A stretch of DNA of 63,443 bases from Myxococcota bacterium. Lineage in GTDB: Bacteria; Myxococcota_A; UBA796. This document shows positions 26,156-49,327 of the stretch, piece after piece. Made by a program: the position numbers and the translations under genes. The stretch is taken from assembly GCA_036156175.1 (NCBI GenBank), contig JAYZVA010000058.1, positions 1-63,443 on the forward strand. Reading direction: 5' to 3'. Below the pieces are notes generated by a model that saw nothing but the letters and a program-made list of their open reading frames with translations, did no database searches and was not told the origin of the DNA. How positions within the stretch are numbered: the stretch's first letter is position 1; each line of letters starts with the position of its first letter.

Positions 26156-27394
26156 TCACGACTTCTTGAGGATGTACCGCATGAGGTCCTCTCGAGAGTG
26201 AAACGCTTCGTGATTGCTGTTCCGAAGCCCCTTGTAATCGTTGTAGTAGGGGTAGCTCGACCGACTGCGGTCCGTCGGAAGTTCGGTGAACGTTCCATCG
26301 GGTCCACGCTCCGAACGAAACATCTCTCCCTTCTTGGTCTTGGTGAACTGCCAATCGTTGAACGCGTCGGTCTGGCCCGCCTCTTCGCGCGCCACATCCA
26401 GGGCAAACTCTCCCGAGAAAAACGCCGCGTAATCCGACCCCGGCGCAATTTTTTGCCAGTTGGACATGCGGGTCGCTTCGGGGAACGTGCTCGCCACCCA
26501 GTCCTGGGTGGACCGCTTGTCGCCGTTCGCATCCTCCAAGCCCAGGTCATGCGTGTTGCAGGCACTGAACATCATGGAATCGACCTGCGAAAACGCCTTC
26601 GGAAACACCGCAGACAACGCCTCGAGGTCGCGCACATCAAGCGTATCGCCTGTGGTCACGTTGTCGTCGTACTCGTGATTGGGAAACTCCCCGAACACGT
26701 AGGAAGTGTTCGAGTAGTGGTGGCCGGACAACACAAACGACGAGATCTCAAACTCGCCCATCTCGGCGCGATTCAGCACGCTGATCAGCTGCAGCATTTC
26801 ATTCGCGGCGCCCCCGCCAGAGTGCATCACCTTGGCGGCGCCTTCCGAGTCCGTCATCAGCGCGTGCACCACGGCGCTTGCGCGGGACGGCGGCACCCCA
26901 ATGTGACCCAACGCCGTGAGCCAGTCGGACCGCACCCGCTCGGCGGTGCCCGCCTTGAGGGTGCCCTTTTCTTTCCACGTGCCCTCTTCCAGGACGTGCG
27001 AGTCGTTCACCCCCAGCGTCAACACCCGGCCGTCCATCCGAACCTGACCGTGTTCCAGCGCCGGGTCGTCGTACCACCAGGTCATGGTGGACGCCATTTG
27101 CTCCCCAAAGGCGTACTGGTCGGTGCGGTGCCCATCGGCAAACGGGTCGGAGATGGGGATCATGCTCTTCTTCCCGAGGCCCAGTTGATCGGCTTTCTGG
27201 AGCGCCGCGAGCGTCTCGGGAATCTCGTCGTTGTGGTGCGTCACGCTGTTCTGCGTCAGGTAGATCATCACCTGCTCTTTCTGCATTTCTTCGACGGCCG
27301 CGGCGTTGCTCGTGGAATCCGACCCGGCGGAACTGGACGACGACCCGGATGTCGACCGGTCTGTTCCATTTCTTCGACGGGAATAATCGGACAC
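26156..27394 (-). CDS. Hypothetical protein with Ser/Thr-rich N-terminal leader and possible caspase-like His/Cys dyad
   Basis: AGGAGGAG RBS before GTG 27394; normal GC-rich codon usage; motifs FVLSGHH and MMFSACNT; no Sec signal. Confidence 0.7.
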   Translation of the reverse strand: MSDYSRRRNGTDRSTSGSSSSSAGSDSTSNAAAVEEMQKEQVMIYLTQNSVTHHNDEIPETLAALQKADQLGLGKKSMIPISDPFADGHRTDQYAFGEQMASTMTWWYDDPALEHGQVRMDGRVLTLGVNDSHVLEEGTWKEKGTLKAGTAERVRSDWLTALGHIGVPPSRASAVVHALMTDSEGAAKVMHSGGGAANEMLQLISVLNRAEMGEFEISSFVLSGHHYSNTSYVFGEFPNHEYDDNVTTGDTLDVRDLEALSAVFPKAFSQVDSMMFSACNTHDLGLEDANGDKRSTQDWVASTFPEATRMSNWQKIAPGSDYAAFFSGEFALDVAREEAGQTDAFNDWQFTKTKKGEMFRSERGPDGTFTELPTDRSRSSYPYYNDYKGLRNSNHEAFHSREDLMRYILKKS

Positions 27395-27413
27395 AGCGCA
27401 CTCCTCCTGCGCG

Positions 27414-27446
27414 ATCGTATACGCCCCGGTCCAATCGTGTACCCCC
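27414..27446 (-). promoter_or_regulatory. Putative alternative (ECF-like) sigma promoter, copy A
   Basis: GGGGGTACACGATTGGACCGGGGCGTATACGAT; 22/33 ungapped identity to 40601-40633; ends 19 nt before the start codon. Confidence 0.55.
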
Positions 27447-27543
27447 GAGCCGAAAATATTTCGAAAACAAGGGGACCACAATCGCCCAAGATGGCTTAAA
27501 CCGACCTCAGCACTGGTTCACCGCGAACCGCTGGAGGGGACGC

Positions 27544-28725
27544 ATGGAAGCAACGGACCAAACCGGGAAAATCATTTGGACAAACGCCATCTTTTTGGCG
27601 ATTACACCTTTTCTTGCAGTGGCGGCCGGCGCCTGGTACTTCGCCACCCAAACCTTCTCGTGGACCCCCATCATCGCCGCCGTCGCCCTGTACTTCGTGG
27701 CGGGCATGAGCATCACGGTCGCGTATCACCGACTGTTCAGCCATCGGACGTACAAAGCGAGCCCCATCCTGCGGGCCATCTTCGCCGTCACGGGCGCTTC
27801 GGCGTGGCAGAACAGCATCATCGAGTGGGCGTCCGACCACCGGCGGCACCACCTGTACGTCGACACCGACGATGATCCCTACAACGCGCACCGGGGTTTT
27901 TGGTACTCCCACATCTTCTGGATCTGCATCCGCGGCCGCCACGACGGCGACCTGAGCAACGTCAAAGACCTGTTCGACGACCCGATTTGTGCGTGGCAGC
28001 ACCGCCACTACTGGTCCATCTCCATCGCGTTCAACGTCCTCGTGCCCGTGCTGTTGGGCTGGCTGACGGGAGACGTCCTCAGCATGGTGATCTGGGCGGG
28101 CCTGATCCGGGTGGTCGTCGTTCACCACACCACGTTCCTGATCAACTCGTCCGCCCACATGTTCGGCACGCAACCGTACTCCGACCACAACACCGCCCGC
28201 GACTCGTGGTGGCTGGCGTTCCTGACCCACGGCGAGGGCTACCACAACTACCACCATGCCTTCGAGAAGGACTACCGAAACGGCCGCAGCTGGTACGACT
28301 GGGACCCGTCGAAGTGGCTGATCGCCGCGTTTGCAAAGGTGGGGCTGGCCCAAGACCTCCGTCGTGTGCCCGACGACATGGTGCTTCGGCGTCGCTTCGA
28401 GGAAGGGCGGTCGCGCTTCGTCGACGATCTTGAATCCTGGGGCAAGAAGTGGGACGCCTGGAAAGAGGAAGTCCGTGCCGGTGCCCAAGACGCCCTCGGC
28501 GAGCACCTGCTCCACGCCGAAGAGCGCATCGATGCGGCCCTCAAGGACCTGCGGAAGAAGCGCGCGGCGTGGCAAAAAGCGGTGCGGGACAACCAGTCGA
28601 AGGCGACCATCCGGTCCATGAAGAAAGCCTGCCGCTCTGCCCAACGGAGCATCTCCAGCGCGATGGCCGAGTGGGAGGCCATGATGGGCCAGTATGCCCA
28701 GTCCATGACTCCCCAAGCGGCATAG
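27544..28725 (+). CDS. Delta-9-type fatty acid (acyl-CoA) desaturase
   Basis: Three His boxes HRLFSH, HRRHH, HNYHH; DPSKW; C-terminal coiled-coil extension. Confidence 0.93.
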   Translation: MEATDQTGKIIWTNAIFLAITPFLAVAAGAWYFATQTFSWTPIIAAVALYFVAGMSITVAYHRLFSHRTYKASPILRAIFAVTGASAWQNSIIEWASDHRRHHLYVDTDDDPYNAHRGFWYSHIFWICIRGRHDGDLSNVKDLFDDPICAWQHRHYWSISIAFNVLVPVLLGWLTGDVLSMVIWAGLIRVVVVHHTTFLINSSAHMFGTQPYSDHNTARDSWWLAFLTHGEGYHNYHHAFEKDYRNGRSWYDWDPSKWLIAAFAKVGLAQDLRRVPDDMVLRRRFEEGRSRFVDDLESWGKKWDAWKEEVRAGAQDALGEHLLHAEERIDAALKDLRKKRAAWQKAVRDNQSKATIRSMKKACRSAQRSISSAMAEWEAMMGQYAQSMTPQAA

Positions 28726-28726
28726 C

Positions 28727-29419
28727 ATGCCCGCCCCCACCCTCGAAGCCGCCGCCACCGAGTTCGACCGGTGGGCCGATGCTGGGCGCGCGGAATCGAT
28801 GGCGGAGGGCCACGGCGGCGTGACCCGACAGACGCTCGACCGGTGGGCCTTGAGCACCGATGACACCGTGCTCGATGTGGGGTGCGGCAACGGCTGGGCC
28901 GTGCGCGAGATGTTGGCTCGAGGCGCCGGTCGAGGGATTGGCGTCGACGTGGCTCCGAAGATGGTTGCGCTCGCCCATGCCGCGAGGGCGGCCGACGAGC
29001 CCTCCGCGTTTCATGTGGCTCCCGCCGACGATCTGCCCATCGCCGACAGAGCCGTGACCCGCATCTTGAACATCGAGAGCATCTATTACTACCCCGACCC
29101 CGCTGCGGCGGTGCGTGAGTGGGCGCGCGTCAGCGCTCCCGACGGACGATTGGCCGTGCTCGTCGACCTGTACGCCGAGAATCCCGCGACCCACTGCTGG
29201 ATCGACGCGCTCGACGTCGCGGTTCACCTGTTGAGCGCCGACGACCTGACCACCATGCTGGCCCGTGCCGGTTGGCGCGACGTGTGGACCGAGCAAATCG
29301 TGGACCCCCGACCCATCACCCCGGAATCCAAGTTCACGGTGAGCAAGTATTGGCCCAGCTACACGGCGTACTTGGAGTACCGGCGGACCGGTGCGCTGGT
29401 CGTGCACGGCACGCGATAG
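28727..29419 (+). CDS. Class I SAM-dependent methyltransferase
   Basis: VLDVGCGNGW, GVDVAPKM, ESIYYYPDP. Confidence 0.88.
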   Translation: MPAPTLEAAATEFDRWADAGRAESMAEGHGGVTRQTLDRWALSTDDTVLDVGCGNGWAVREMLARGAGRGIGVDVAPKMVALAHAARAADEPSAFHVAPADDLPIADRAVTRILNIESIYYYPDPAAAVREWARVSAPDGRLAVLVDLYAENPATHCWIDALDVAVHLLSADDLTTMLARAGWRDVWTEQIVDPRPITPESKFTVSKYWPSYTAYLEYRRTGALVVHGTR

Positions 29420-29425
29420 GTCGGA

Positions 29426-30940
29426 TCACCGGCGGACCAGCAGCGCGTACCAACCGCGCTCCGGTCGGGGCACCTCCGGTGCGTCACCCCGAGCCAGCGC
29501 CAAGTCGCCGTCTCCCACGACCCACTCCACGCGCCAGTCGGGGCTCTCGAGCAGCCGAATGGTCCGCCCCCCATCCTCGCCTTTCGCGCCCACGCTGTTG
29601 ATCATGATGGCGTCGAGGTCGTCGGGAATGGGTCCGGCCCAGATCGGCCCGACGGCGCGGGCGCGCAGCCCCGCCCGCAAGACCACATCGCGGCTGGAGA
29701 AATCGGCCCCCACAACCCCGCTCGGGGGCGCGTTGGACGCCAGCATTTGGGCCGCCAACGCCGCCGCCTCGGAACCCTCGAGGAAGTAGGGAGGCTCGTG
29801 GCCAAGGGGGGTCAAGTGGACCTCGGCCAACACGGCTGCCAACGCAACGGCCATCCAGCGGCCGGACGCCAGCGAAGCCACGCCCGCAGCCATCAGCGCG
29901 ATGAGGCCCGGAAACACGAACAGGTAGTTGGACGCGGCGCCGGCTTGGTCCTTGGCCATGGGTGCCACGGCCACGACAAAGAGCGGCGTTGCCACCAGCA
30001 CAATGATGGTCCAAAACGAGGCGTTCCGCTCCAACCTCAGTCCGCTCCACACCACACTCAGAACGCCCGTGAAGCCGATGGCGCCCACCACAATGCCGGC
30101 GGCGCCCACGAGGCCTCCGGGCATGGACGCCACCAACGACACCACATCGTCGATGGCGGGTTGCCCGGGCACCACCCCCGATTCCACGGCCGCCAGAGCA
30201 AACCGACGAAACTCGGTGGGCACCGAAGCGGGGCCAAAAAGCGACAACAAATCCCAGGTTGACCAAGTGCCGTACCACGGCCCGAACAACTGCTCGTGGC
30301 CCGACAATCCCCGCAAAGAGCTGCGCAACACGGCGTGGGGAAAGACCGCCACGGCCGCGCTCAACGCCGCGCGACGCCACCCCTGACCCGCCATCCAGAT
30401 GACGCCCGCGGTCATGACGGGAAGCAAAATTCCTTCCGGTCGGGCCATGGGTGCAGCCGCCGCCAGCAGCACGACCGCAATCGACCCCTTTTGCTGCTGA
30501 ACCGCGGCCACCGACGCGGCAAGGAAGGCCGTGGTGATGATCGCGCCAAGGGGCCGGGCATCGAGCACGGGAGCGTGGGTCAAGAACGTGGGCATGAGCA
30601 CGTACACCGCGACCGCAATCCGCCCCGCATGCCGCCCCCCCAACAGGGTGGACAGGCGGTGAAGCGGCCACGCGAGTGCACCCCAAAGGCCCAAGTTCAG
30701 CAACCGCGCGCCGGCCGTGTCGTACCCCAGCGCGACCGCGGGCACATTGAGCAACGACCACAACGGAGGCCAGAAGTTGGGATCCCCCACCTCCGTGGGC
30801 GATCCGAGCCACGATGCGCTCAGACGCAGCATCTCCATGCCGTCGGGACTTCGCAGGGCTGAACCACCGAAAAGCAGGAATAGAACCAAGGAAATGGCGG
30901 TCAACGCCGCCCGTTCCTCCACCACGGAGAGTCGAGTCAT
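29426..30940 (-). CDS. Polytopic membrane protein, GT-C (ArnT-like) candidate
   Basis: First-loop SPDGMEM, FWPPLWS, ARPEG motif, many TM segments, soluble C-terminal domain. Confidence 0.55.
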   Translation of the reverse strand: MTRLSVVEERAALTAISLVLFLLFGGSALRSPDGMEMLRLSASWLGSPTEVGDPNFWPPLWSLLNVPAVALGYDTAGARLLNLGLWGALAWPLHRLSTLLGGRHAGRIAVAVYVLMPTFLTHAPVLDARPLGAIITTAFLAASVAAVQQQKGSIAVVLLAAAAPMARPEGILLPVMTAGVIWMAGQGWRRAALSAAVAVFPHAVLRSSLRGLSGHEQLFGPWYGTWSTWDLLSLFGPASVPTEFRRFALAAVESGVVPGQPAIDDVVSLVASMPGGLVGAAGIVVGAIGFTGVLSVVWSGLRLERNASFWTIIVLVATPLFVVAVAPMAKDQAGAASNYLFVFPGLIALMAAGVASLASGRWMAVALAAVLAEVHLTPLGHEPPYFLEGSEAAALAAQMLASNAPPSGVVGADFSSRDVVLRAGLRARAVGPIWAGPIPDDLDAIMINSVGAKGEDGGRTIRLLESPDWRVEWVVGDGDLALARGDAPEVPRPERGWYALLVRR

Positions 30941-31000
30941 TTCACTTCATAGCCACTGGAACCATCGACGGCACTGCATCCCATGGGTAGTATTCTATAG

Positions 31001-31852
31001 ATGATTTCGCGCCTCACCATGTCCTCGGTCCTCGCGGTGGTCGCCGCAGCCGTCGGATCCTTCTGGAGCGACCATCGCCAACGAACCACCCGCGCAGCGG
31101 CCGTGAGCGACTGGGTGAGCAGCCACGCCCGTTGGCGAGACGACCCAAGCGCGCCCGAGCCGTGGCGCTGGCGGGCCCCTTCCACCGAAAACCGCCTCGA
31201 CCGTTGGGGCAAAGTGGCGCCCAGAACCATCTTGATGGCGGGTGCGGGCCAAGAAGTTTGGGCAGTCAACGAAGCCGCGGGCGTGGGGCGGGATGCCGTT
31301 CCCACCGAGGCGATCCCGTTGATCAGCATCTCCACCGCCGGATTCCTTGGCGTCGCCTTGCCCATGGAACCCGAACACTTTGACATGCTGTCGACGGGCA
31401 TCGTCGCCGGGCTCGACCCGTGGCGAACCATCATGGTTCAGCGGTGCGGCGGCTGCGCGCCGTATGCGCGCGCGTTTCCGTCCCCGGATGTCCCGGTGCT
31501 TGTCGCCGAACACGGGGTCGACGCCCAAGGCGCCACCGGGGTGAACATCGACGTGGAACGCCGGCGGCGGAGCGCCGTCCCGTTCAACAATGCCGGCCGC
31601 CCCTTGACGGAAATGGTGATTCAAGTCCGAAATGGCGCGCTGCCCACATCGGCCAACTGGGCCACGGCCGGACTGGCGGGAATGGCCGCGCTGGAGCTGG
31701 CCGCCCAACGACGGACCGACCTGACCGAGACCTTCCAGCAGTTGGGCCGCTCCGGTCCGTCCCGGACGGACCGAATCGCGGGCCTGTGGGCCGCCCACCT
31801 CATGGGCGCGACCAACGACCCCTACCTCGATGCAATCCGGGCGCTGATGTGA
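31001..31852 (+). CDS. Hypothetical protein with N-terminal hydrophobic anchor
   Basis: Only plausible ORF filling the gap; its stop overlaps the GTG start of the next gene. Confidence 0.55.
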   Translation: MISRLTMSSVLAVVAAAVGSFWSDHRQRTTRAAAVSDWVSSHARWRDDPSAPEPWRWRAPSTENRLDRWGKVAPRTILMAGAGQEVWAVNEAAGVGRDAVPTEAIPLISISTAGFLGVALPMEPEHFDMLSTGIVAGLDPWRTIMVQRCGGCAPYARAFPSPDVPVLVAEHGVDAQGATGVNIDVERRRRSAVPFNNAGRPLTEMVIQVRNGALPTSANWATAGLAGMAALELAAQRRTDLTETFQQLGRSGPSRTDRIAGLWAAHLMGATNDPYLDAIRALM

Positions 31853-33384
31853 CGGTACACACCCTGCTGATTCATGCGCCCAAGGTCAACGACCGCTTCG
31901 GTCCGTTGGGCGACGCCATGTCCATCAACTACTTGGCGGTGGGGCTTCCGGCATTGGGCGGAGCCATCGAAGCGACCGGTCGGAGCGTGGAGATCCTTCA
32001 CCTCGGCGTCCAACGGCTCGCCGAACCCGGATTCGACCTCGAGCAGGAGGTTCGACGCCTCAAGCCCACCATTGTTGGATTCTCCCTGCACTGGCACCCC
32101 CAGACGTGGGACACCGTGGAGGCGGTGCGGGCGGTCCGACGCGGTTCGCCCGACACCTTCATCGTGCTGGGCGGGTTCACGGCCAGCGCCATGCACCGCG
32201 AGATCTTGGAGACCACTCCCGAGGTCAACGGCGTGATTCGCGGAGACGGCGAGGTGGCACTGGTGGCCTTGGCGGATGCCTTGGACGCCGATGCGCCGCT
32301 CGCGTCCGTGCCGAACCTGACCTTCCGCTCCACCGCCGGCATCCACGAGAACGCCGTGTCGTCGTTGTCCACGGCGAACAGCATCTCGGGGCTGGACTAC
32401 GAACGCTTCGACCTCATCCGCCACCACCGACGGTACATCAACGAGTTCTGCGGCGCGTTCTACATCCCGCATCGGCGCCCCCAAGCCGCCCTCATGAAGG
32501 TGGGCCAGCGTCTGTTCGGCGGCGCCGGCGGGCGCACCATGATCCTTCCTGCAGGCCGCGGGTGTTCCGTCACCTGCGGCTGGTGCGGCGGCGGCCGCCT
32601 GAGCCACAAAAAGTTTCACGGTCGAAAGAACTGGATTCAGGTCAGCCCGGGCCGCACCGCGGCGCTCATCGCCCGTTCCGTGGAGCTGGGATTCGATGAG
32701 GTGCAGGCCTGCTTCGACCCCACCCCCACCGACCCGCGACACTGGATTGAGGTCGCCCAGCGGGTGAAGGCGTCGGGCGTTCGCACCAAGATGTACTTCG
32801 AGTCCTACGCGATCCCCGAGCCGGAACTCGTCGACGCCCTGGTGGATTCATTCGACTCGGTGCTGATCTCGATGTCTCCCGAGAGTCCCGAAGAAGCCGT
32901 GCGGCGCCGGTTTCGCCCCATGCACTTCAGCAACGATGAGTTGGTCGAAGCCGTGCGGATGTGCGCCACCAAGGGCGCAAACGTCATGCTTTGCTTCGGG
33001 CAAGGACTGCCCGGCGAAGGCGTCAACACGCCCGCCGCGGCCACCAAACTGGTGAAACGCTGCCGAAAGGCCGCCCGCGGCGTGCGCCTGCAGTGCCGGT
33101 CGTTCGCGATCGAGATGGAGCCGGGCAGCCCGTGGGCCCTCAAACCCGAAGCCTACGACATCGAGTTGAGCCGACGGACCTTCACCGACTACGTCGAGGC
33201 GCACCGTCCCGATGCGCCCGCTGACCTGGGCTACCGGGTCAAAGGAGCCGACGATCGGTTCGCCCTCGAGATCCGCGAGGCCGCCTGCAAAGAAATGTGC
33301 CCGTTGCCTCCTTCCCCTCGACTGGGCCACCTGACCTGCAAAGCACTCGGTGCTTTTTCGCCTTCGACCGGCTGTTCGGGGTAG
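31849..33384 (+). CDS. B12-binding radical SAM protein
   Basis: Cobalamin-binding region (VGFSLHWH, VLGGFTAS, RGDGE) followed by GRGCSVTCGWC (CxxxCxxC). GTG 31849 is coupled to the upstream stop. Confidence 0.88.
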   Translation: MTVHTLLIHAPKVNDRFGPLGDAMSINYLAVGLPALGGAIEATGRSVEILHLGVQRLAEPGFDLEQEVRRLKPTIVGFSLHWHPQTWDTVEAVRAVRRGSPDTFIVLGGFTASAMHREILETTPEVNGVIRGDGEVALVALADALDADAPLASVPNLTFRSTAGIHENAVSSLSTANSISGLDYERFDLIRHHRRYINEFCGAFYIPHRRPQAALMKVGQRLFGGAGGRTMILPAGRGCSVTCGWCGGGRLSHKKFHGRKNWIQVSPGRTAALIARSVELGFDEVQACFDPTPTDPRHWIEVAQRVKASGVRTKMYFESYAIPEPELVDALVDSFDSVLISMSPESPEEAVRRRFRPMHFSNDELVEAVRMCATKGANVMLCFGQGLPGEGVNTPAAATKLVKRCRKAARGVRLQCRSFAIEMEPGSPWALKPEAYDIELSRRTFTDYVEAHRPDAPADLGYRVKGADDRFALEIREAACKEMCPLPPSPRLGHLTCKALGAFSPSTGCSG

Positions 33385-33393
33385 GGTACCCGT

Positions 33394-34986
33394 ATGCAGT
33401 CTCCAGCCAGAATGGCGGGGCTCCCACCGGACCGCCCGCCCCGCATCTTGTTCTGCCGCACACCGCGGTACATGTGGCCGATTCTGTCCGAAGCCGACAA
33501 CTTCCTGATTCCGCTCGGCTACTTGTGCCTGGCGGCCGCGCTCCGCGAGTCCATGCCCGATGTCGAGATCAAGCTGATCGACTGCCCGGTGCAGCGCCTG
33601 GGCTGGGGATCCTTGGAAGCGCTGATGCGCGAGTGGCAGCCCGACATGGTCTGCGCCGGGGACGAAGCGATCTACGTCCACGAGAGCGCCAAACTGTTCC
33701 GCACCGCGAAGCGGGCCAATCCTGAGTGCATCACCGTCGGTGGGGGGTTCACGCTCCCGCACGTGCCCGAGTGGGCGTTGGGTCCGGGCAGCTGCGACTA
33801 CCTGGTGTTTGGCGAAGGCGAGATCACCTTCACCGAGCTGGTGAAGACCCTCCGTTACGGGGGGGACCTCAGCACCGTAGCGGGACTTCGCTACCTCGAC
33901 ACCGACGGTACGGTGAAAGACACCGGCTTCCGGCCCCTGATCCGGAACCTCGACGACCTGCCGCTTCCCGCCTACGACCTGATGCCGCGCATCAGCCACC
34001 GAAAAGGCGCGAGCTTGTTTCAGAACAGCTTCAACATCGAGAAGGGTCGGGGGTGCATCGACACCTGCAGCTTCTGCGCCATCTGGACCCAGATGGGAAG
34101 CTGGAAAGACGGCAAGCCGCGGCCCCGCTACCGCGCGAAGTCGCCCGAACGCGTGGTGCGCGAGATGGAGATCCTCCACCGCCAGTACGGCTACCACAAC
34201 TTCATGTTCGTGGACGGAACGTTCAACATCGACCCAACCTGGAACGACGACTGGGCCGACCGGGTGATCGCCAAGAACTGGGACGACATTGCGTGGTACG
34301 GCTTCTTCCGGGCGGACTCGTACGAGCGGGAACACAAGATGGGCGTCTTCAAGAAGCTCGTCCAGACCGGGCTGCACTGGTACTTGGTGGGAGTCGAACG
34401 CGAGACCGCTGAAGATTACGAGTTCTTGAGCAAGCACAACTACGATACGCAGTCCATGCACGCCATGTTTGAGAGCCTCCGCATCGACTACCCGGAGGTG
34501 GTGCGCCACGCGACGTTCATCATCGGGTTGCCCGACGACACCCGGGAAAAACTGGACCGCCTCTTCGACTACGCCGTCAGCCTGCGCCCCGACTTCATCG
34601 CCTTTCAGACCATCAGCCCCGAGCCCGGCACGCCGCTTTGGAACCAAGCGATCGGCGAAGGGTGGCTGGAGGACAAGGGGATGGACGAACTCAAAGAGTT
34701 CTACTGGTGGCAGCCGGTCATGAAGACCAATCACCTGTCGATGCAAGAGATGCTGGAAGTGGCCAACACCATGAACCGAAACGTCTTCTCCAGCTACGTG
34801 CGGTGGGACACGGTGCGGTCCCTGGTCAGCCGATCCCGCGCCCGACGGGGCTACTACCAGTTCATGGTCGCGGTCGGAGCCAAGACGATGGCCCAGCACA
34901 TGTTCGATTCCATGCGCGGCAAGACGTCGTTCTCACACCTCAATGTCATCAAAGACATGGTGAAGCCTCACTGGTACGACCTCTGA
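33394..34986 (+). CDS. B12-binding radical SAM protein (class B methyltransferase/BchE-HpnJ-like superfamily)
   Basis: PLGYLCLAA, VGGG, GEGEITF, LDDLPLPAYDL, GRGCIDTCSFC, FIIGLPDDT, PEPGTPLW. Confidence 0.92.
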   Translation: MQSPARMAGLPPDRPPRILFCRTPRYMWPILSEADNFLIPLGYLCLAAALRESMPDVEIKLIDCPVQRLGWGSLEALMREWQPDMVCAGDEAIYVHESAKLFRTAKRANPECITVGGGFTLPHVPEWALGPGSCDYLVFGEGEITFTELVKTLRYGGDLSTVAGLRYLDTDGTVKDTGFRPLIRNLDDLPLPAYDLMPRISHRKGASLFQNSFNIEKGRGCIDTCSFCAIWTQMGSWKDGKPRPRYRAKSPERVVREMEILHRQYGYHNFMFVDGTFNIDPTWNDDWADRVIAKNWDDIAWYGFFRADSYEREHKMGVFKKLVQTGLHWYLVGVERETAEDYEFLSKHNYDTQSMHAMFESLRIDYPEVVRHATFIIGLPDDTREKLDRLFDYAVSLRPDFIAFQTISPEPGTPLWNQAIGEGWLEDKGMDELKEFYWWQPVMKTNHLSMQEMLEVANTMNRNVFSSYVRWDTVRSLVSRSRARRGYYQFMVAVGAKTMAQHMFDSMRGKTSFSHLNVIKDMVKPHWYDL

Positions 34987-36665
34987 GTCACGGTGGTGCC
35001 GGCAGGCACATTTGCGTGCTCCACCGGGTCTCCATTCACCGGTGTGATGCGCACCCAATCGGCGACCGGATGCCCCGCCAAGCCCAGATGAAGCGATGAC
35101 CCCGAGTTGGAGAAGGTGGTGCCGGGGAGCATCCACGTCTCGCGCGCGAGCCCATTGACCGACCACTCCACCGTGGCTCCCAAGTCGGCCGCACCCATCT
35201 CGGGAAAATCCACGACTACCCCGGGGCCACAGCCGCCTTCTGAAGCATAGATGCGAATCACCTGATGGCGATTCGCCAACAGTCCGGAGGTCGCCAAGTC
35301 GGGCAGCCCATCTCGATTGAAGTCTGCCACCACGACGGCTCGAGTCACGCCCATCGCATCGAACCCGAGCATCGATGAGAACTCGGTAAACGCGTCGCCA
35401 TCGTTCATCCACAGCGCATTGGGCTGAGCCGGCAGGTCATCGATGTCCGCCACCACTTCGTGATCCACCAGGTCGGACCAATCGCCTTCCATGCCCACCA
35501 ACACCGGCCCGAAGGTCGACACCAAGTCCGAGTGACCGTCCATGTTGAGATCGATGAATGAGGTTCCCCATCCCGTGACCCGCTCGGGGCCCACCGCAAT
35601 GCCCCGAGCCAGTGCCGACTCGTAGTACCGTCCGTCGCCCATTCCCATCAGCAGTTCCGGCGAGCCAAAGTTGGTCACGTGCACATCGGGCACACCGTCG
35701 CCATCGACGTCACCCACCGCGCCGCCCATGCCGAACTTGGCACCATCGCACTGGCAGTCATCCGCAGTCGTGAAGGTTCCGCCCTCGTTGACCATCAGCT
35801 CGCTGGCGTGAATGAACGCGCCAAAGTCGTTGATGACCAACAGGTCCAAGTCCCCGTCGTCATCGGCGTCGTAAGGGATCCCCTGAAACGAGGCCGCGAC
35901 TGGATTTCCGGGCACGGTTCCCGGAGAGAACACACCGGCGTCGTTCCAATAAAACCCGTTCGGGTCGGCCTCAAACGTGCCCGCCATCAGCTCCGGAAGC
36001 GAAGTGGAGTGCGCATCGACGTGGCGGGCCACAAACAAGTCCAGATCGCCATCGGCATCGGCATCAAACAGGGCCGCGCTCTGACTCTCAAAGGAGGAAT
36101 TCACGAGCTCTGTTGACTCGAACCGTCCTTCGCCGCGATTGATGTACACCCGGTCGGGGGTTCCGGTGCTGGTCAAGAGCACCAGGTCGACCCGACCATC
36201 GCCGTCGACATCGCCCGTGGTCAGCCCGTTGCCCATCGGGAGCGGTCCCCCATCGAACTCGATCGTGGAATCGGGTGCAAAGGACCCGCCGTCGTTCACC
36301 AGGACATGGGTCTGGGCCCACGCGCCGGCCGGCACCAGATCGGGCCAGCCATCGTCGTTGACATCCAGCACGGCCAGCCCCCACCCGCAGGAGCCCAACA
36401 CAAACGGTGCGGGCGGCGACCCCATGGGATGGATCTGGGTCGATGTGAATTCCGACACCAACCGCAGGCCGGGCGCGGCGCACTCGGGCGCGGACGGCTC
36501 TCCGGGGATTGCGGTACCCGTGTCATCCGCCGGCCCGGTATCGGATGGCGTGGCATCCGATGGGTCATCGATCGCCGACGCTCCGGTGTCGATGCCCGGT
36601 TCGGCGATCGGGTCGGGGCTGCCCGACGATGTGCACGCAATCGCCAAGAAAAGAAACGCCGTCAC
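34968..36665 (-). CDS. CRTAC1/ASPIC-UnbV family FG-GAP lipoprotein
   Basis: GTG 36665, lipobox LAIAC; DxDGDG repeats; C-terminal ASPIC-like LHLGL. Confidence 0.85.
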   Translation of the reverse strand: MTAFLFLAIACTSSGSPDPIAEPGIDTGASAIDDPSDATPSDTGPADDTGTAIPGEPSAPECAAPGLRLVSEFTSTQIHPMGSPPAPFVLGSCGWGLAVLDVNDDGWPDLVPAGAWAQTHVLVNDGGSFAPDSTIEFDGGPLPMGNGLTTGDVDGDGRVDLVLLTSTGTPDRVYINRGEGRFESTELVNSSFESQSAALFDADADGDLDLFVARHVDAHSTSLPELMAGTFEADPNGFYWNDAGVFSPGTVPGNPVAASFQGIPYDADDDGDLDLLVINDFGAFIHASELMVNEGGTFTTADDCQCDGAKFGMGGAVGDVDGDGVPDVHVTNFGSPELLMGMGDGRYYESALARGIAVGPERVTGWGTSFIDLNMDGHSDLVSTFGPVLVGMEGDWSDLVDHEVVADIDDLPAQPNALWMNDGDAFTEFSSMLGFDAMGVTRAVVVADFNRDGLPDLATSGLLANRHQVIRIYASEGGCGPGVVVDFPEMGAADLGATVEWSVNGLARETWMLPGTTFSNSGSSLHLGLAGHPVADWVRITPVNGDPVEHANVPAGTTVTQRSYQ

Positions 36666-37714
36666 TCTTCCCTCCCCGCCGCGCTGTTGTCCAGCTCTTC
36701 CACCACATCGCTGGACAGGAACACGTTGGCCCATGCCGCAAACATCACGCCCGAGATGCCCAGCGAGAGCAGATGAACAATGCGAAGGGACACCACAAAT
36801 GTGCCCGCGTCCACCACCGAGACACCGCCGGCACCCACCATGCTGCCGATGACGGCCACCTCGAAGGTTCCGAGCCCACCGGGCAAGAACATGCCCACCA
36901 AGATCGCCAAGCTGCCGGTTCCTTGCGACAGCATCAACCCAGCAAGGTGAGCCTCGACGTTCAGTGCCACGCACAACAGGATCATTGACACCACCTGGAA
37001 GCCCTGAATGCACACGCTCCATCCAAACACGCGAAGCCATGCGGTCCACGGCGCTCCACCGACCGACACCAAGGCATCCGCAAAGAGCCGCAACGAGCCC
37101 CCCACCGAGCCCAGGGAATCCGTCGCAGCGATGACGCCCTTACCGAGCCGCATCATCCAGGCCGGTCGGGTCGATACGGCACCGAGCCCCACACCAACCA
37201 ACACCAAGATGACGCCGCCTCCAGCGACCACTTGACCCACCACACCATCGACGGTCACAAAGGGAAAAGCCGCGAGCGCAAAGCAGGCTGCGGAAGCCAG
37301 GCCGACAAAGCGCGCGTGCACAGACGCGGCAAACGCCACGCTCATGGGGATGCCGTATCGTTGACGCAATGCAGCCACGGCGGCGACCTCACCCACTGGA
37401 CCGGGGAGCATCAGCGAAAACACGCTGCCCGAGAAAAACAAGGAGCCCACCGTGAACCCCTTCATCTCGCGGGTGTGTTCCGCGGGGGCAATCGCCAGAA
37501 ATCGATGACCGACCAAGATGTTGGCAAACACGAACATGCCCACGGCGGCCGCCAGCCACCCCGGTCGAATCGCCTTGAAGATTGGCCACGGATCCACATC
37601 GGTCGTGAATCGGATGACCCCCACCCCGATGGCCAACGCCAAGATCAAGCCGACCCCCGTCGCGCCCAGCACCCGGCGCATGACCGCCGAGCGAGACAAT
37701 TGCGCCGCGCTCAC
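36662..37714 (-). CDS. Lysylphosphatidylglycerol-synthase TM / UPF0104 flippase-like membrane protein
   Basis: LPGPVGE and LPGGLGTFE motifs, many TM helices. GTG 37714 is coupled to the upstream stop (alternative ATG 37681). Confidence 0.8.
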   Translation of the reverse strand: MSAAQLSRSAVMRRVLGATGVGLILALAIGVGVIRFTTDVDPWPIFKAIRPGWLAAAVGMFVFANILVGHRFLAIAPAEHTREMKGFTVGSLFFSGSVFSLMLPGPVGEVAAVAALRQRYGIPMSVAFAASVHARFVGLASAACFALAAFPFVTVDGVVGQVVAGGGVILVLVGVGLGAVSTRPAWMMRLGKGVIAATDSLGSVGGSLRLFADALVSVGGAPWTAWLRVFGWSVCIQGFQVVSMILLCVALNVEAHLAGLMLSQGTGSLAILVGMFLPGGLGTFEVAVIGSMVGAGGVSVVDAGTFVVSLRIVHLLSLGISGVMFAAWANVFLSSDVVEELDNSAAGREE

Positions 37715-38142
37715 GACTCCTCCCGGAGGGACACAGGAACTCCCGCGCCGGACAACACCTTGACCACTCCCGAGACCACAAACCGCGGCATCCAGCCTTT
37801 CTTGATCAGCGCGATGTCGGAGAGCGAGCCCGTTTGCACCAACTCTCGGCACAGCCTCAACGACTCCCCCGGACCCGGGGGGCCATGGCCCACAAAGTCC
37901 AAGACCAACGAAATCGAACCACCCCACCGCTCGCTGAGGGCGCGCACGGCGGCAACCGCCGCTCGCCGGTGCTCCTCATCGGGGGTGGACGAAGCCATGA
38001 TGCGGAGGATCCGGTTGCCATCGCGGAGACCGACGTCCCGCCCGATGCGGAACACCTCGCCGTGTTCGGCATCCGCGTCGGTCCACTGCAGCTGGGGGGG
38101 CCACTCGGCTTCCATTGGGGGCCTCGGGTCAGCCGCGCGCAC
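37711..38142 (-). CDS. Hypothetical protein (STAS/SEC14-like), paralog of 38129-38689
   Basis: Shares LxWxxxDAExGxxFRIG and the E[RH]WG...D pattern with its upstream neighbour; overlaps both flanking genes. Confidence 0.6.
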   Translation of the reverse strand: MRAADPRPPMEAEWPPQLQWTDADAEHGEVFRIGRDVGLRDGNRILRIMASSTPDEEHRRAAVAAVRALSERWGGSISLVLDFVGHGPPGPGESLRLCRELVQTGSLSDIALIKKGWMPRFVVSGVVKVLSGAGVPVSLREES

Positions 38143-38689
38143 GCCTCAGCACACGGGTGAACAACTGGCCGAAGGCGCCTTCGCCCAACCGCCGCTTGAC
38201 GACCAGTGCGGACGACAGCGGCACCAGCGTGAACCCCGCACGACCCACGGAGGTGTCCATGGCGTCGAGGCGAGCATCGAGCGCCGCCCGTCCATTGATG
38301 GCTTCGAAGGGCATGTCGCCGGCGCAGAACATGCGGCAGACGAAGCGTCCAAGCACTTGCGTGAACGAGTTGTGCATCAGCATGAAGGACTGGTCCACGC
38401 TGCCGTTGCTCCAGGCCGCACGGCTCCACTCGAACAAAAACTGCGCTGCCGGCGGCTTCTTGACGTCCGGGTCAATCACAAACACGACGGGGGCACCCCA
38501 GTGCTCGGCAAGCTCATGAAAGGCCTCCACCGCGGGAGTGAGGTAGTCCAGGTTGGGCGAGTGTTTTGCTGCGAGTCGCACAACCCGCTGGCCTTTTCGC
38601 TCGCGGTAGTAGACGTCTTTGGGACCGATCCGAAACAGGGGGCCTTCTTCTGCGTCCTTGTTGATCCATTCCAACTCGTATTTCGCCAT
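38129..38689 (-). CDS. Hypothetical protein (STAS/SEC14-like)
   Basis: GAGGTG RBS before ATG 38689; alpha/beta pattern VVFVID...FTQVLGRFV...PFEA. Confidence 0.65.
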   Translation of the reverse strand: MAKYELEWINKDAEEGPLFRIGPKDVYYRERKGQRVVRLAAKHSPNLDYLTPAVEAFHELAEHWGAPVVFVIDPDVKKPPAAQFLFEWSRAAWSNGSVDQSFMLMHNSFTQVLGRFVCRMFCAGDMPFEAINGRAALDARLDAMDTSVGRAGFTLVPLSSALVVKRRLGEGAFGQLFTRVLRRARG

Positions 38690-38756
38690 GCTCACCTCTT
38701 GTCCGACCACACCACTCGTGGCACTGTACTGCTCAGCATAACCGAAGAGGCTTCCA

Positions 38757-39425
38757 TTGATCGTTTTCATTGCACTATTGTCGGCGACCTTGGGCGGATG
38801 CAGAGAGGCGTGCCGGGACGGATACGGGCGGGCAGCCGACAACCTTTGCTACCCGCTGGCGGACCGGCCGTGCGGCGAAGGGTACGCACGGTCCGATGAC
38901 GGCGACTGCGTCCCGATCGGCAGCGCCAGCGCGCCAGTCGGCGACACCGATGCCGATGCCGACGCCGACGCCGATGCCGATGCCGACGCCGATGCCGATG
39001 CCGATGCCGATGCCGACGCGGGCGCTCCCACTGGTCCCACCGGGTTCCAGGGCCGGATTGATGTCGATTCGGGACTCGAAATGGACGCCGGGCTGTCGTT
39101 CATCGTCAACGCCTGGACACCCGATCAAGTCGACCCCGCAACGGGGTGGCCCACCGCATCGAGCCCGTTTCAAACCCACACCTTCAACGTGGTTGAGGGT
39201 GGAATCACCCTGAACTATACGTTTCCCCTCAACGACGTGCCCGACGCCGGAGTCGACCTGCGCGTCACTGCAGAAGTCGTCGGAAGCGGCCCGCAATGGG
39301 ACAACGCACTGCCGGCCATCGTCCCGACGGACCCCGATGACGTCCTCGCGTTTTTACCCGGAGACTGGCGGAGCGACGTCGACTTCACGATCGCCATCGG
39401 AGCATCCGACACCGGCGCGCGGTGA
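38757..39425 (+). CDS. Putative lipoprotein with Cys-rich N-terminus and (DA)12 acidic linker
   Basis: TTG start, lipobox TLGGC, two C-x-x-G-Y-x-R units, Asp-Ala linker, beta-rich C-terminal domain. Confidence 0.65.
   Translation: MIVFIALLSATLGGCREACRDGYGRAADNLCYPLADRPCGEGYARSDDGDCVPIGSASAPVGDTDADADADADADADADADADADADAGAPTGPTGFQGRIDVDSGLEMDAGLSFIVNAWTPDQVDPATGWPTASSPFQTHTFNVVEGGITLNYTFPLNDVPDAGVDLRVTAEVVGSGPQWDNALPAIVPTDPDDVLAFLPGDWRSDVDFTIAIGASDTGAR
38949..39020 (+). repeat. Hexanucleotide tandem repeat (GAYGCS)12 encoding (Asp-Ala)12
   Basis: Directly visible GATGCC/GACGCC array. Confidence 0.95.
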
Positions 39426-39427
39426 AC

Positions 39428-40537
39428 TCACCAGGTTGGCTGGTCGATCCGCCGAACCACCGCATTCTCCGTGTCGGCGAAGACCACGTCTCCATCGGGG
39501 GCGTAAACGACATCCCTTGGACTCCGGAGGCTGGCGCCCTCGCTCGCTTCGGTATCGCCATCAAACCCGGTCGCTCCCCGACCCGCAATCGTATCAATGG
39601 TGCCATCGGGAAAGACCGCGCGCAGCGCGTCGTTGCCCGTGTCCGCGATGATCATCCGACCCGCCGAGTTGAACGCGAATCCATACGGCCCCGCCAACTG
39701 CGCATCTTCCGGAGGGCCGCCGTCGCCGAGGTAGCCGCGCACATCGGTCGCGCCCACCACATTCGTGATTGTGCCGGTGGCCGTGTCAACGGAGGCGATC
39801 CGATGCCGCCCCGAATCGGCCACATACAACACGCCCTCGTGAAGCAGCAGCTTCTGGGGTGAGTCGAGCCGGTTGCCGTCGTCTTCGCCATCGGCAGCAA
39901 TCGGAAAGCCTTCCTCGTCTGCACCCGCCACGGTGATCACCCGATCATCCGCAGTGATGGCGCGAATCATGTTGCTGCCCGAGTCTGCGACGTAGATTGT
40001 TCCATCGTTGGCGACGGCAATCCCCGAAAGCGCATCAAACTCGGCCTCATCGGCGGTCACCTCGTCTTCGTTGAAGCCGTCCGTGATCGCCTGAACGCCC
40101 GCCAGGATGGTCAACTCGCCGGCCGCCAAATCAACCACGCCCACCTGGTGGCCCTGGCCTTCCACAAAATACAGCAGGTCATCGGGTCCCACCACCATGT
40201 CCGAGACCGTGAAGAGCGGACTGTTCAGAGCTGGACCCGTCTGGGCGTATGTGTTGGACACCTTGCCCACCACCGTGGTCAAGATTTCGCCATCCATGCG
40301 GCGGATCAAGTAGTTGCGGGAGTCGTTGATCAACAGGCGATCGTCGGCGTCCCATGCCAAGGCGTTCGGGTAGTTGAGGTCCGTGTCCAGCGCGGTCTGG
40401 TTTTGATGGTTGTACCCCTGGTCGCCCGTACCCGCGATGGTGCAGATGATCGCCTCGCCGTCGCAACGGGCCGTTTCTTCTTTGGGCTCCACGCAGCCCA
40501 TCATCGCCAAGCACACCCAAGGTTTCCATCCGTTCAT
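39428..40537 (-). CDS. NHL-repeat lipoprotein
   Basis: GGAGG RBS, lipobox MMGC; repeats IYVADSGSNMIR, LYVADSGRHRI, IADTGNDALR, GYLGDGGP. Confidence 0.88.
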   Translation of the reverse strand: MNGWKPWVCLAMMGCVEPKEETARCDGEAIICTIAGTGDQGYNHQNQTALDTDLNYPNALAWDADDRLLINDSRNYLIRRMDGEILTTVVGKVSNTYAQTGPALNSPLFTVSDMVVGPDDLLYFVEGQGHQVGVVDLAAGELTILAGVQAITDGFNEDEVTADEAEFDALSGIAVANDGTIYVADSGSNMIRAITADDRVITVAGADEEGFPIAADGEDDGNRLDSPQKLLLHEGVLYVADSGRHRIASVDTATGTITNVVGATDVRGYLGDGGPPEDAQLAGPYGFAFNSAGRMIIADTGNDALRAVFPDGTIDTIAGRGATGFDGDTEASEGASLRSPRDVVYAPDGDVVFADTENAVVRRIDQPTW

Positions 40538-40600
40538 GATCGGCCTCCGTCGGGCAATGCTAACCGGGATTGGCAGAAATGAACCTCGCTTTGGCGGTTT

Positions 40601-40633
40601 GGGGGTGACTTTTTGGAACGCGGTGTCTACGTT
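40601..40633 (+). promoter_or_regulatory. Putative alternative (ECF-like) sigma promoter, copy B
   Basis: GGGGGTGACTTTTTGGAACGCGGTGTCTACGTT; 22/33 ungapped identity to the reverse complement of 27414-27446; ends 15 nt before the ATG. Confidence 0.55.
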
Positions 40634-40648
40634 AGGAAAGGAGCCTTC

Positions 40649-42313
40649 ATGTCCGAACGCAGCCGCCGCACATCCACCCAGCAAACCACGAGCACGGAGA
40701 CGGGTTCGGCGGTCGCGACCGTGGGCGGAGCCTCCAACTCGCAACTCGCCGAGTCCACCCGCACGGCGGAAGGCACGGCGGCGGGACTCGCCAACTACCA
40801 GGCGGCACTCGGTCAGTGGTTGGGGGGAGAGCTGTACGGTGCGGTGGCCGGGCACCTGACCCTCGAGGCCATGTCGGGTCACGCCAACTCCGCGCTCATG
40901 AGCGCCCTGAAGGCACTGTCGAGCGGCTTGGAAAACATGGAACCGTCGGCCGAGTCAAAAGCCCTTCAAGAGCTGGCCAAGTCCCTTCAAGACGAATTCA
41001 AGACCGCCGCCGGCGACTGGCTGGAACAAAACGGCGCGGGCTTCTGCGCCGATTTGGCCGACTGGGTCGATGCCAACCCGATCCTGATCGTGACCGCCGC
41101 CATGCTGGCTGCCGCCGGTGCTTATCTGGCGAACGCGTCCATTCCAGAGTTGAGCCACGCGTTCAACATGGGCGAGTTCAAGGCCGAGTTGGGCGCCAAG
41201 CTGGGCCGCCTTCGCGACATCTCGCTTGAGCAGGTGTCCCTCGAGCTGAGTCACGCCACCGCCCCCCTTGTGGCGTCGGTCAAGGTCTCTCCGGGCGGCG
41301 AGCAGGTCAAAACCGAGGTGGGCGCATCGCTGGGCAGCGCCGAGCGCCGCGTGTACACCTCCGGGGAGTTCGTCGGCGACAACCTGAACGTCCTCAACGT
41401 GGGCGGTGTGTTGACCGCTGGAAACACCGCCGTCACCGCCGAGCACAACGCCAACATGAGCGACGGCGGGCGGCAGACCACCACCGTCAACATCGAGACC
41501 AAAGACGGCAACATCACGCGAACAAACAACATCGCGTACGACTCGAACACCGATGTGCTGACGGTCAAGAACATCCTCAGCCAAGTCGACGGCAAGAACT
41601 CCACCACCATCGAATCCGTCGGCTCGTCCAATGGCAACACATCCGAGACCGTGTCGCTCGCCCGCGACTTGGGCGGGGGACTCAGCGGCACGATGTCGCT
41701 GACCGAAGCGGCGCGGCGAATGGGGGTCGGCTCTTCCTACGAGTTGTCGACCGAACAAAAAGCGTCCTTGGGACTCAACTACGACTCGAGCGACCTGGAT
41801 GCGGCCATGTCGTTCAACTCGTCCACGAGTGGAAACACCAGCGCATCGGGGAGCGTGGACTACACCCGGCCCAGCGGCTGGCAAATGGGGGCCGACGCGG
41901 CGGTCACGTTTGGTCAGAAAGACACCCTGGAAGCCGGGGCTTACTTTGGATTCCGAAACCCCAATGAGTTCCAGACCTACATGGGGAAATACCGGTTCAA
42001 GGACGATGTCTCCCAGTCCCACGACCTCGACCTCATGGTCGAAGAACGGTTCGGCCCCATCTACACCCGTCTGCAGCAGAACGTTGCCGTGGGCCTGACG
42101 GGGACCAGCTGGACCACAACGGCCCAAGGCGCCTACTTCTTCAACGACAACTTTGCCCTCATCGGCGGCGCCCAGTACAGCGGCAACAACGCCGGTGACG
42201 AGTCAATTGCGCCCCAGATCGGCGCACAAGTCTATGGGGTGCCGCTGGTCGTGACCCACGACTTCGACACCAAGACGACGACGGTTGGGTTCACCTTCAA
42301 GTTTGGCCGCTGA
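40649..42313 (+). CDS. Hypothetical protein: Ser/Thr leader, helical region with hydrophobic segment, long beta-strand-rich C-terminus
   Basis: AAGGAG RBS; no Sec signal; ends TTTVGFTFKFGR, resembling a beta-barrel terminal strand. Confidence 0.75.
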   Translation: MSERSRRTSTQQTTSTETGSAVATVGGASNSQLAESTRTAEGTAAGLANYQAALGQWLGGELYGAVAGHLTLEAMSGHANSALMSALKALSSGLENMEPSAESKALQELAKSLQDEFKTAAGDWLEQNGAGFCADLADWVDANPILIVTAAMLAAAGAYLANASIPELSHAFNMGEFKAELGAKLGRLRDISLEQVSLELSHATAPLVASVKVSPGGEQVKTEVGASLGSAERRVYTSGEFVGDNLNVLNVGGVLTAGNTAVTAEHNANMSDGGRQTTTVNIETKDGNITRTNNIAYDSNTDVLTVKNILSQVDGKNSTTIESVGSSNGNTSETVSLARDLGGGLSGTMSLTEAARRMGVGSSYELSTEQKASLGLNYDSSDLDAAMSFNSSTSGNTSASGSVDYTRPSGWQMGADAAVTFGQKDTLEAGAYFGFRNPNEFQTYMGKYRFKDDVSQSHDLDLMVEERFGPIYTRLQQNVAVGLTGTSWTTTAQGAYFFNDNFALIGGAQYSGNNAGDESIAPQIGAQVYGVPLVVTHDFDTKTTTVGFTFKFGR

Positions 42314-48797: not shown

Positions 48798-48880
48798 CAC
48801 GCGATTCAATCGGAACTCCGTTGCCCGCTCATGGTACCGCAAATGCCGCCGGCTGGGGGGTCCATCTGCCCGCACGCCGT

Positions 48881-49327
48881 TCACGGCTCGGGTTCGCCCG
48901 ACCACATCCGTCCCGACCACATTCGCCCCACCATGCGAACATCACCGAACAACGACCACAATGGGTAGGTGAAGGTCGCGGGTCGGTTGCGCTCCACCGC
49001 AAAATGACCCACCCAAGCGCACCCGTATGCGACCGCAATTCCCGCACCGACCCAGGGGCTGCCAATGACCAGCACCGCCGCGATCGCGAGCGCTTCGCCG
49101 ACCGCTCGCCGTCTCGCTTCGATCGAGCGCGCCAAAAACGCGACCACGGCGGCCCCGATCACGCAAGCGCCCATCCGTACCGGGTGCGCGACCAGGGAAG
49201 CCACAACGGTGCCCCCAAACACCGTTGTTCCCACAAAATGCAGGTGGCGCGATGCCGGTCGGCGATGCTCGCCCAGATAATGGGGCCAGAAGTCCGAAAA
49301 CGATGCGAGACGTTGCCCTTCGCTCAT
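48881..49327 (-). CDS. DUF962 (Mpo1-like) membrane protein
   Basis: FWPHYLGEH...LHFVG, AWVGHFAVERNRPATF. Confidence 0.88.
   Translation of the reverse strand: MSEGQRLASFSDFWPHYLGEHRRPASRHLHFVGTTVFGGTVVASLVAHPVRMGACVIGAAVVAFLARSIEARRRAVGEALAIAAVLVIGSPWVGAGIAVAYGCAWVGHFAVERNRPATFTYPLWSLFGDVRMVGRMWSGRMWSGEPEP

Follow-up and report, generated by a model that had tools for sequence, protein, structure and literature searches.

Two genes on one contig of a marine Myxococcota bacterium raise the question of why proteins with unrelated bodies should begin with the same N-terminal leader and follow similar upstream DNA. The window analyzed here is the whole stretch of 63,443 nucleotides of contig JAYZVA010000058.1 (assembly GCA_036156175.1), and its source genome, referred to as G000, is a 92% complete assembly of 3.88 Mb with 63% GC, whose gene starts come from a simple caller. 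Gene A lies at 26156–27394 of the window on the reverse strand and gene B at 40649–42313 on the forward strand, both with metabolic or envelope genes as neighbors; the sources of the gene A homologues label these as Myxococcota. With a probability of about two in three, A and B would encode dispersed cargo of an extracellular contractile injection system (eCIS), loaded by a signal that can be recognized in the sequence and co-regulated within the genus.

The leader is a portable N-terminal module

The leader of gene A (residues 1–38; 27281–27394, reverse strand) consists of a head, a Ser/Thr spacer and an SN-x-A box at residues 29–32, and that of gene B (residues 1–38; 40649–40762, forward strand) has its SN box at residues 29–30. 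A first-pass annotation of the window had aligned the two as MS[DE]xSRR, a spacer, S29-N30 and E35; both leaders read as claimed, although E35 and the exact 29–30 register vary across families. The accompanying claim that neither has a Sec/Tat hydrophobic core agrees with the low hydropathy of the first 35 residues of gene A (percentile 1.6 among G000 proteins) and with the polar leader of gene B. Most of the homologues found (73 for gene A, 41 for gene B) start with M[SP][DES][YH], followed by a spacer of Ser/Thr/Gln/Arg and, around residue 30, by an SN or GN box. What stays constant is the head (M[SP][DES][YH]..R/Q) together with the box Asn; of 30 aligned gene B sequences, at least 90% keep N30. 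The most distant homologues of A and B (P0067–P0070, P0108, P0112, L184 and L186) carry DPL repeats in place of the GN/SN box, which may represent a second class of leader from other lineages.

A first scoring model, trained only on 74 homologues of A and B and applied to the 3320 called genes of G000, placed gene A first, C104:2122 second, gene B third, C78:23141 fourth and C36:709 sixth, the fifth rank being a Ser-Ala repeat frame. The C78 gene combines a peptidoglycan-binding domain with an SLT lytic transglycosylase, and the C104 and C36 genes correspond to an EF-hand protein and an M23-like peptidase, both by Pfam matches below cut-off. These five leader genes occupy four contigs, all other than the one that holds the eCIS locus (C161), and all stand in housekeeping neighborhoods. 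A profile that includes the five, run against 188,789 candidate N-termini, gave nothing more above 12 bits.

A broader leader profile (A4; 52 rows and 42 positions, with rows L043, L123 and L179 left out) has the consensus M[PS]x[YH] head, polar spacer and [GS]N-x-A box, and matches 89 of the 154 genomes searched in the order at E ≤ 0.01. From about 165 matches, the 46 strongest, none used in training, formed a held-out set; the peptidoglycan-binding proteins L051–L056, found with a peptidoglycan-binding query, were not counted as independent. All 46 matches start no more than 15 codons from a start codon, and the proteins fall into 30 body families, 24 of them without any training member; together with 19 training proteins, the 65 leader proteins make up 40 body families. 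A hydrophobic core is present in none of the 46 and in 42% of G000 proteins, a difference that is partly by construction. Their Pfam matches are to cell-wall binding or cutting domains (11), EF-hands (6), DUF4157 (3) and a calpain domain (1), with none for 24. In relatives within the genus, YkuD_2 L,D-transpeptidases bear the leader in three genomes (G012, G014 and G015), whereas the YkuD_2 protein of G000 has a lipoprotein-like start and no leader, so here the leader takes the place of a Sec signal; zincin-like and C39-like domains are weakly matched in further leader-bearing bodies. The bodies are patchily distributed between close relatives. The leader is thus a portable N-terminal module, and the check proposed at the outset, that a leader profile be used to look for further carriers, brought up new genes with unrelated bodies in G000 and across the order.

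Two other candidates stand apart from this set. A weak leader match near pvc16 in genome G126 was rejected because it lies in the wrong frame. A 525-residue orphan protein (L040; G000:C189:1339–2916, reverse strand) has a longer leader that ends in a canonical LQ...GNQAV box; its gene, divergent from a kinase-like and FHA-like cluster, is not scored by the leader profile and has no promoter motif.

The leader occurs with a contractile injection system

The first-pass annotation had named eCIS, type VI secretion (T6SS), type III secretion and Tad as machines to look for. A complete eCIS locus is present at G000:C161:13477–36196 (L035, L036), with an AAA ATPase, DUF4157, Pvc16, two sheaths, two tubes, a hub, gp25 and baseplate J, its last gene encoding a YukD-like ubiquitin-fold domain. 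No match to the T6SS sheath protein TssC was found in the 92% complete G000; the only FlhA lies in the flagellar cluster, with no second FlhA/SctV for an injectisome; FliP has no match in G000 with its profile, and PF00437 ATPases give nine. Within the family, the eCIS ATPase is found in 15 of 16 genomes (68–96%) and tube genes in all 16. More widely, a Pvc16_N match is present in 142 of 182 class genomes and in 137 of 154 order genomes. Of 12 relative loci checked, 10 have a short DUF4157 gene, free of other domains, directly in front of the AAA+ ATPase gene; the product of this stand-alone gene could be a loading adaptor.

Leader matches are found in 86 of the 137 order genomes with Pvc16_N and in 3 of the 17 without (Fisher p = 5e-4, with kin that are not independent), and two of these three hold tube genes. 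The close homologues of gene A (E < 1e-60) come from 15 class genomes, all within the order, of which 14 have Pvc16_N and the remaining one has tube genes. Three observations link the leader to DUF4157, partly in line with the suggested likeness to the leaders of DUF4157 and eCIS-associated proteins. DUF4157 scores above cut-off on 3 of the 46 held-out leader proteins, against 2 matches in about 3375 G000 genes. A distant homologue of gene A (L186), whose head is of the DPL type, is fused to DUF4157. Among the DUF4157 open reading frames of the family, 5 of 11 have a GN or SN box before the domain and a sixth has an MPSY-RR head, as judged by eye. A and B themselves have no DUF4157.

Gene A encodes a predicted clan CD cysteine peptidase

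Gene A (412 residues, GTG start) carries behind its leader a predicted cysteine peptidase of clan CD, with the caspase/legumain/CHAT/clostripain fold. Its protein has no Pfam match. In the analysis as a whole, the PDB sequence searches with A1 and A2 gave nothing significant, and the Atlas feature searches gave no named family at 0.9 or above. The AlphaFold model has a pLDDT of 86 and a pTM of 0.87, with residues 1–34 below a pLDDT of 50 (disordered), and its best Foldseek matches are legumain, SAVED-CHAT and clostripain (E 2e-4 to 1e-3). In the VIA comparison, it superposes on SAVED-CHAT with a Z of 10.1 and a root mean square deviation (rmsd) of 4.0 over 173 aligned residues, and the top-ranked clan CD enzymes reach Z values of 8–10. 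His225 of an SGHH motif (26720–26722, reverse strand) and Cys279 of an ACN motif (26558–26560, reverse strand) are kept in 37 of 37 aligned sequences and, given the clan CD fold, are likely the catalytic residues; by the order of the elements in the model, SGH225 follows the strand 216–223 and AC279 the strand 273–277. Gene A has in common with clan CD peptidases (SAVED-CHAT, PDB code: 8tl0; clostripain C11; legumain) the predicted caspase-hemoglobinase fold and the invariant His...Cys pair, and differs from them in its identity of about 10%, its lack of a Pfam match and an rmsd of about 4.

A precedent for such cargo is provided by Tce1 and Tce2, described in the accessible text as putative cysteine proteases carried in the lumen of the T6SS tube (PMC13323088). 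The comparison of the gene A model with Tce1 (9qpe_G; Z 6.8, rmsd 3.6, 155 aligned residues) stays within the range of common arrangements. Metatranscriptome contigs from four seawater sets of two studies match gene A at 26270–27286, the similarity being 95% or more for 10 of 11 pieces; none reaches the promoter motif, and such contigs can show neither transcription nor its start. A second caspase-fold family with the leader (SGH...SAC; L008, L009, L010 and relatives) is widespread in the order and has one weak CHAT match.

Gene B encodes a possibly barrel-like protein

Behind the leader, the 554-residue product of gene B contains a helical domain (residues 44–136), a hydrophobic helix (144–161) and a long β-meander (168–548), and has no Pfam match. 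The model is of low confidence (pLDDT 59, pTM 0.34; residues 1–47 below a pLDDT of 50), its Foldseek matches being VDAC, porins, LptD and FimD with TM scores of 0.2–0.36, and the Atlas structure rows reach 0.46–0.54. At this low confidence, the β-meander resembles a membrane β-barrel. A Sec signal peptide is expected of outer-membrane β-barrel proteins; gene B differs in having none at its N-terminus, where the leader is polar, and its single hydrophobic helix is the internal one.

The upstream element belongs to a putative genus-level promoter class

The two genes, their leaders and the shared 33-mers were all found where the first-pass annotation had placed them. The 33-mers (27414–27446, reverse strand, for gene A; 40601–40633, forward strand, for gene B) are identical at 22 of 33 positions and end 19 and 15 nucleotides before the starts, with purine runs that resemble ribosome-binding sites in between (27401–27408, reverse strand, and 40638–40643, forward strand). 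Both read as promoter-like elements: in gene A, a −35-like block (27439–27446), an extended −10 GCGTA and the −10 hexamer TACGAT (27414–27419); in gene B, a −35-like GTGACT, a spacing of 17 nucleotides, an extended −10 GTGTC and the hexamer TACGTT (40628–40633). No third full copy exists among all positions of the 3.88 Mb, the two sites scoring 55 by construction and the next best 42. In the upstream regions of orthologues, conservation of the motif extends to its ends (GGT/GTG near −35 and G-T-G-Y-N-TAnnnT) and not to the center, TTGGA.CG.GG, so that part of the 22/33 identity is due to chance.

De novo motif discovery in 21 upstream regions, from 5 families and 6 genomes of the genus, aligned a G-T-G-Y-C/N followed by TAnnnT, located 6–23 nucleotides before the start, with a −35-like block 16–18 nucleotides further upstream (GTGACT, TGTACA or TTGGCA, depending on the family). 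Of the 21 sites, 19 have TAnnnT as their core and two have TAnnnC; in the SLT family, the arrangement is TTGGCA-17-TAnnnT. Sigma-70 promoters with an extended −10 are of the form TGn-TAnnnT when housekeeping, and RpoS-type ones have a C at −13. The bulk promoters of G000 are TG-n-TAnnnT, present in 5.2% of 689 non-divergent upstream regions and in 0.4% on the other strand. The leader-gene sites have in common with these the TAnnnT and the −35-like block 16–18 nucleotides upstream, whereas they carry G-T-G-Y-C at −17 to −13 and never a G at −14 (0/21, against 255/476 background sites). GTGnn precedes TAnnnT in 15 of the 21 sites and in 7 of 476 background sites; the housekeeping TG-n, present at 78 of the 476, occurs at none of the 21. 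In models that leave out one family at a time, the G000 members rank 1 (gene B), 5, 21 (gene A), 61 and 1294 among 3254 genes, and these held-out ranks show that the motif exceeds chance. By this layout, the motif is a putative genus-level class of sigma-70-type promoter, with a group 1/2 arrangement and distinct from the housekeeping one; a second genus (g2) has a housekeeping-type TGn-TATAAT upstream. The proposed dispersed set is thus upheld in that five G000 genes have both leader and upstream motif, and narrowed in that the motif is confined to the genus, a smaller range than that of the leader.

G000 has 11 sigma-70 region 2 matches, three of them ECF-sized (extracytoplasmic function). 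By eye, the three group-2-like factors encoded on C111, C41 and C23 retain the residues for −10 melting; at the His of region 3.0, all three depart from RpoD. They are candidates for reading the motif, which is absent upstream of the three genes among the top 60 motif sites. The genome also encodes three FliA-like sigma factors (C26, C151 and C216), and the C41 and C23 factors form an unusual paralogous pair.

A related element, TTGTC(T/G)-16-TACAAT, lies in the 3' part of pvc16 (G000:C161, about 19231–19264, forward strand; L269–L273) in 5 of 5 genus genomes, at 190–192 nucleotides before the sheath start in the four that have this start in the locus. It falls on invariant Thr codons that are rarely used (relative use 0.045 for one and 0.068 for the other), where the gene has its highest-scoring window of four codons (13.2 bits; the runner-up region reaches 6.8). 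Its G−17/C−13 context (G..HC) recurs in 15 of 21 leader sites, compared with 19 of 873 background sites, a moderate indication that the leader genes may be co-regulated with sheath and tube. The top motif match on C161 is a different site and was rejected, as it corresponds to the first codons of the sheath gene itself.

Other features of the window and of related genomes

Elsewhere in the window, a DUF1552 (HXXSHH) gene is paired with a DUF1587/1595/1592/1588/1585 gene (45880–48920, reverse strand), a pair common in Myxococcota and Planctomycetes, and 31849–34986 (forward strand) holds a tandem pair of B12-binding radical SAM genes. At 58328–63298 (forward strand), DegT aminotransferase and radical SAM genes come before those for an ABC-2 permease and a GldG-like ABC auxiliary protein. 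In genome G013, the loci C1/C97 and C29/C51 are identical duplicates, probably from assembly or binning.

Discussion

The known eCIS loading signals, as given in the accessible text of the papers cited here, offer the closest comparison for the leader. Loading in PVC requires an N-terminal sequence and an AAA+ ATPase, with DUF4157 dispensable (PMC9054023), and the same is described for the disordered N-terminus of AlgoCIS cargo (10.64898/2026.05.27.728243). The first 50 residues of the PVC cargoes Pnf and Pdp1, which act with Pvc15 (PMC9054023), and the first 20 of Afp18 (10.1101/2023.11.13.566157) are polar, disordered and non-Sec stretches of 20–50 residues like the leader, as are the N-terminal domains of the AlgoCIS cargoes Cgo1 and Cgo2, which act with Alg15 (10.64898/2026.05.27.728243). 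Heads of the MP-x-Y or MP-Y type, a Pvc15-like AAA+ ATPase in the genome and an optional DUF4157 are also common to these systems and the leader set. What distinguishes the leader set is a two-part consensus that extends over 40 body families across an order, in genes that are scattered and not beside the operon, and for which loading would follow by analogy. By comparison, the accessible parts of the PVC, AlgoCIS and Afp18 work describe no consensus loading signal, or similarity only between the cargo pairs of one system (10.1101/2023.11.13.566157, PMC11297309).

Hydrophilicity and an aromatic residue within the first eight positions characterize eCIS signals (PMC11297309). eCIS-associated toxins (EATs) and DUF4157/PF13699 proteins resemble the leader set in their hydrophilic first 35 residues, in the early aromatic residue of many members, in the association with DUF4157 and in toxin-like bodies (PMC11297309, accessible text). 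A and B differ from the EATs in lacking DUF4157 and in lying on a contig other than that of the eCIS, and distance-based predictors would therefore likely miss both. No description of this leader was found in the literature searched, which did not extend to subscription papers or to the supplementary tables of the Afp and AlgoCIS preprints. A GN-x-A box is a feature of DUF4157 proteins that the first-pass annotation also named, and the leader motif itself may thus be known already.

Based on these comparisons, the leader likely works like the known loading signals, and A and B would be cargo without the usual linkage to the operon. By analogy with PVC, Afp and AlgoCIS, the cargo, lacking a Sec signal, would be synthesized in the cytoplasm. 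The Pvc15-like AAA+ ATPase would recognize its disordered leader (the M[PS]x[YH] head, a Ser/Thr/Gln/Arg spacer of about 15–30 residues and the [GS]N-x-A box, which would open a short helix), perhaps with the adjoining stand-alone DUF4157 protein as an intermediary. The cargo would then be threaded into the tube for injection into prey. There, the product of gene A would act as a His/Cys protease of clan CD, that of gene B as a membrane-inserting barrel and others as cell-wall hydrolases. In the genus, the leader genes would likely be switched on together from the non-housekeeping sigma-70-type promoter. The analysis itself establishes the leader with its spread and modularity, the eCIS genes, the predicted fold of gene A and the promoter-like motif of the genus; loading, injection, targets, transcription from the motif and the choice of sigma factor are the parts that we infer.

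Several observations weigh against this assignment. Known eCIS toxins mostly lie within 10 genes of the operon, partly because of how the set was built (PMC11297309, accessible text), and in the loci examined here no leader gene was found inside or beside an eCIS locus, and no convincing motif site turned up where the eCIS operon begins or upstream of the ATPase gene. The eCIS is near-universal in the order (137/154), so the co-occurrence rests on 17 genomes, some of them small or incomplete, and 51 of the 137 eCIS-positive genomes have no leader match. In the long DUF4157 protein of G000, as in its three orthologues from the genus, the box reads Gly-Arg/His/Ala and lacks the Asn; the upstream region of this G000 gene scores only 7.0, outside the usual distance. 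As 24 of the 46 held-out bodies have no Pfam match, the label of toxin fits a minority. Regarding the promoter, the 21 sites represent five families from six related genomes and were picked by motif discovery; the SLT family falls to rank 1294 when left out of training; and when 1777 operon-leading genes are ranked, only four of the eight genus leader genes not used in training reach the top 1%. Outside the genus the leader stays, with a best motif score of at most 3.2 at genes of the A family. The element within pvc16, with a score of 9.5 that 15 of 873 background sites also reach, may be a housekeeping promoter. Finally, G000 also encodes the export apparatus of a flagellum and several ATPases of the PF00437 family.

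This last point is the basis for the alternative that survives best, although it is improbable: the leader would be the export signal of another Sec-independent route, either flagellar type III or Tad/pilus-linked killing, and the eCIS would merely co-occur. Type III signals are also polar, disordered N-termini, the flagellar cluster has its FlhA, PF00437 is matched nine times, and the leader genes are unlinked to the eCIS locus. Nonetheless, the DUF4157 enrichment and the fusion point to eCIS, a second FlhA/SctV and a FliP match are missing from the searches described above, the motif is unlike the FliA-type promoter in its usual consensus, and we know of no two-part consensus of this kind in type III signals.

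Slightly less probable still is that the set serves its producer, as a stationary-phase or lysis program whose signal-less cell-wall hydrolases, protease and pore would open the cell to release eCIS particles or as a cytoplasmic contractile system acting on the cell itself, with the leader as a tag for timing, localization or turnover. Cell-wall enzymes are common among the leader proteins, the extended −10 with its C at −13 resembles RpoS-type promoters, and a similar element precedes the sheath gene. Against it, the patchiness of the 40 bodies between close relatives is that of an arsenal rather than of a fixed lysis cassette, and DUF4157 fusions are typical of cargo.

A low-complexity artefact, combined with an ordinary promoter matched by chance, is largely refuted. 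The spacer is indeed of low complexity, a few Ser-rich matches in the wrong frame occur, the center of the 33-mer is unconserved, and a library-wide search of 1.84 billion representatives with the leader profile, which is too short for it, returned just 6 proteins at E ≤ 0.001; but the N-terminal position of all 46 held-out matches, the held-out ranks and the GTGnn context argue strongly to the contrary. Least credible is the promoter of an ECF sigma factor, proposed in the first-pass annotation and in keeping with the three ECF-sized sigma genes and the GTC/CGT triplets in both window sites, since ECF promoters have a GGAAC-type −35 and a GTC/CGT-type −10, whereas the conserved core here is a TAnnnT about 17–18 nucleotides behind a −35-like block, the layout of groups 1 and 2, and the GGAAC of the gene B site is not kept; a sigma-54 reading was likewise rejected, its features not being kept in orthologues.

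Returning to A and B as dispersed eCIS cargo, a larger picture can be drawn, which we hold as somewhat less than an even chance. One conserved eCIS would be the main predation weapon throughout this order of uncultured Myxococcota, with a swappable, genome-wide arsenal of at least 40 families selected through the two-part leader, as read by the AAA+ loader or a DUF4157 adaptor; one alternative sigma factor would control both the cargo of the genus and its sheath and tube genes; and the cargo would include a new caspase-fold protease and a signal-less barrel inserted into prey membranes. In two marine Myxococcota metagenome-assembled genomes, the tube gene is the top transcript (PMC11937823, accessible text).

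The choice of cargo in eCIS is described as poorly understood, and a leader that can be found with a profile would make its residues and its receptor testable. If the leader is a loading signal, payload encoded far from the operon could be listed from sequence. If the assignment is true, the leader proteins would be a first candidate arsenal for marine Myxococcota, including new families of antibacterial enzymes.

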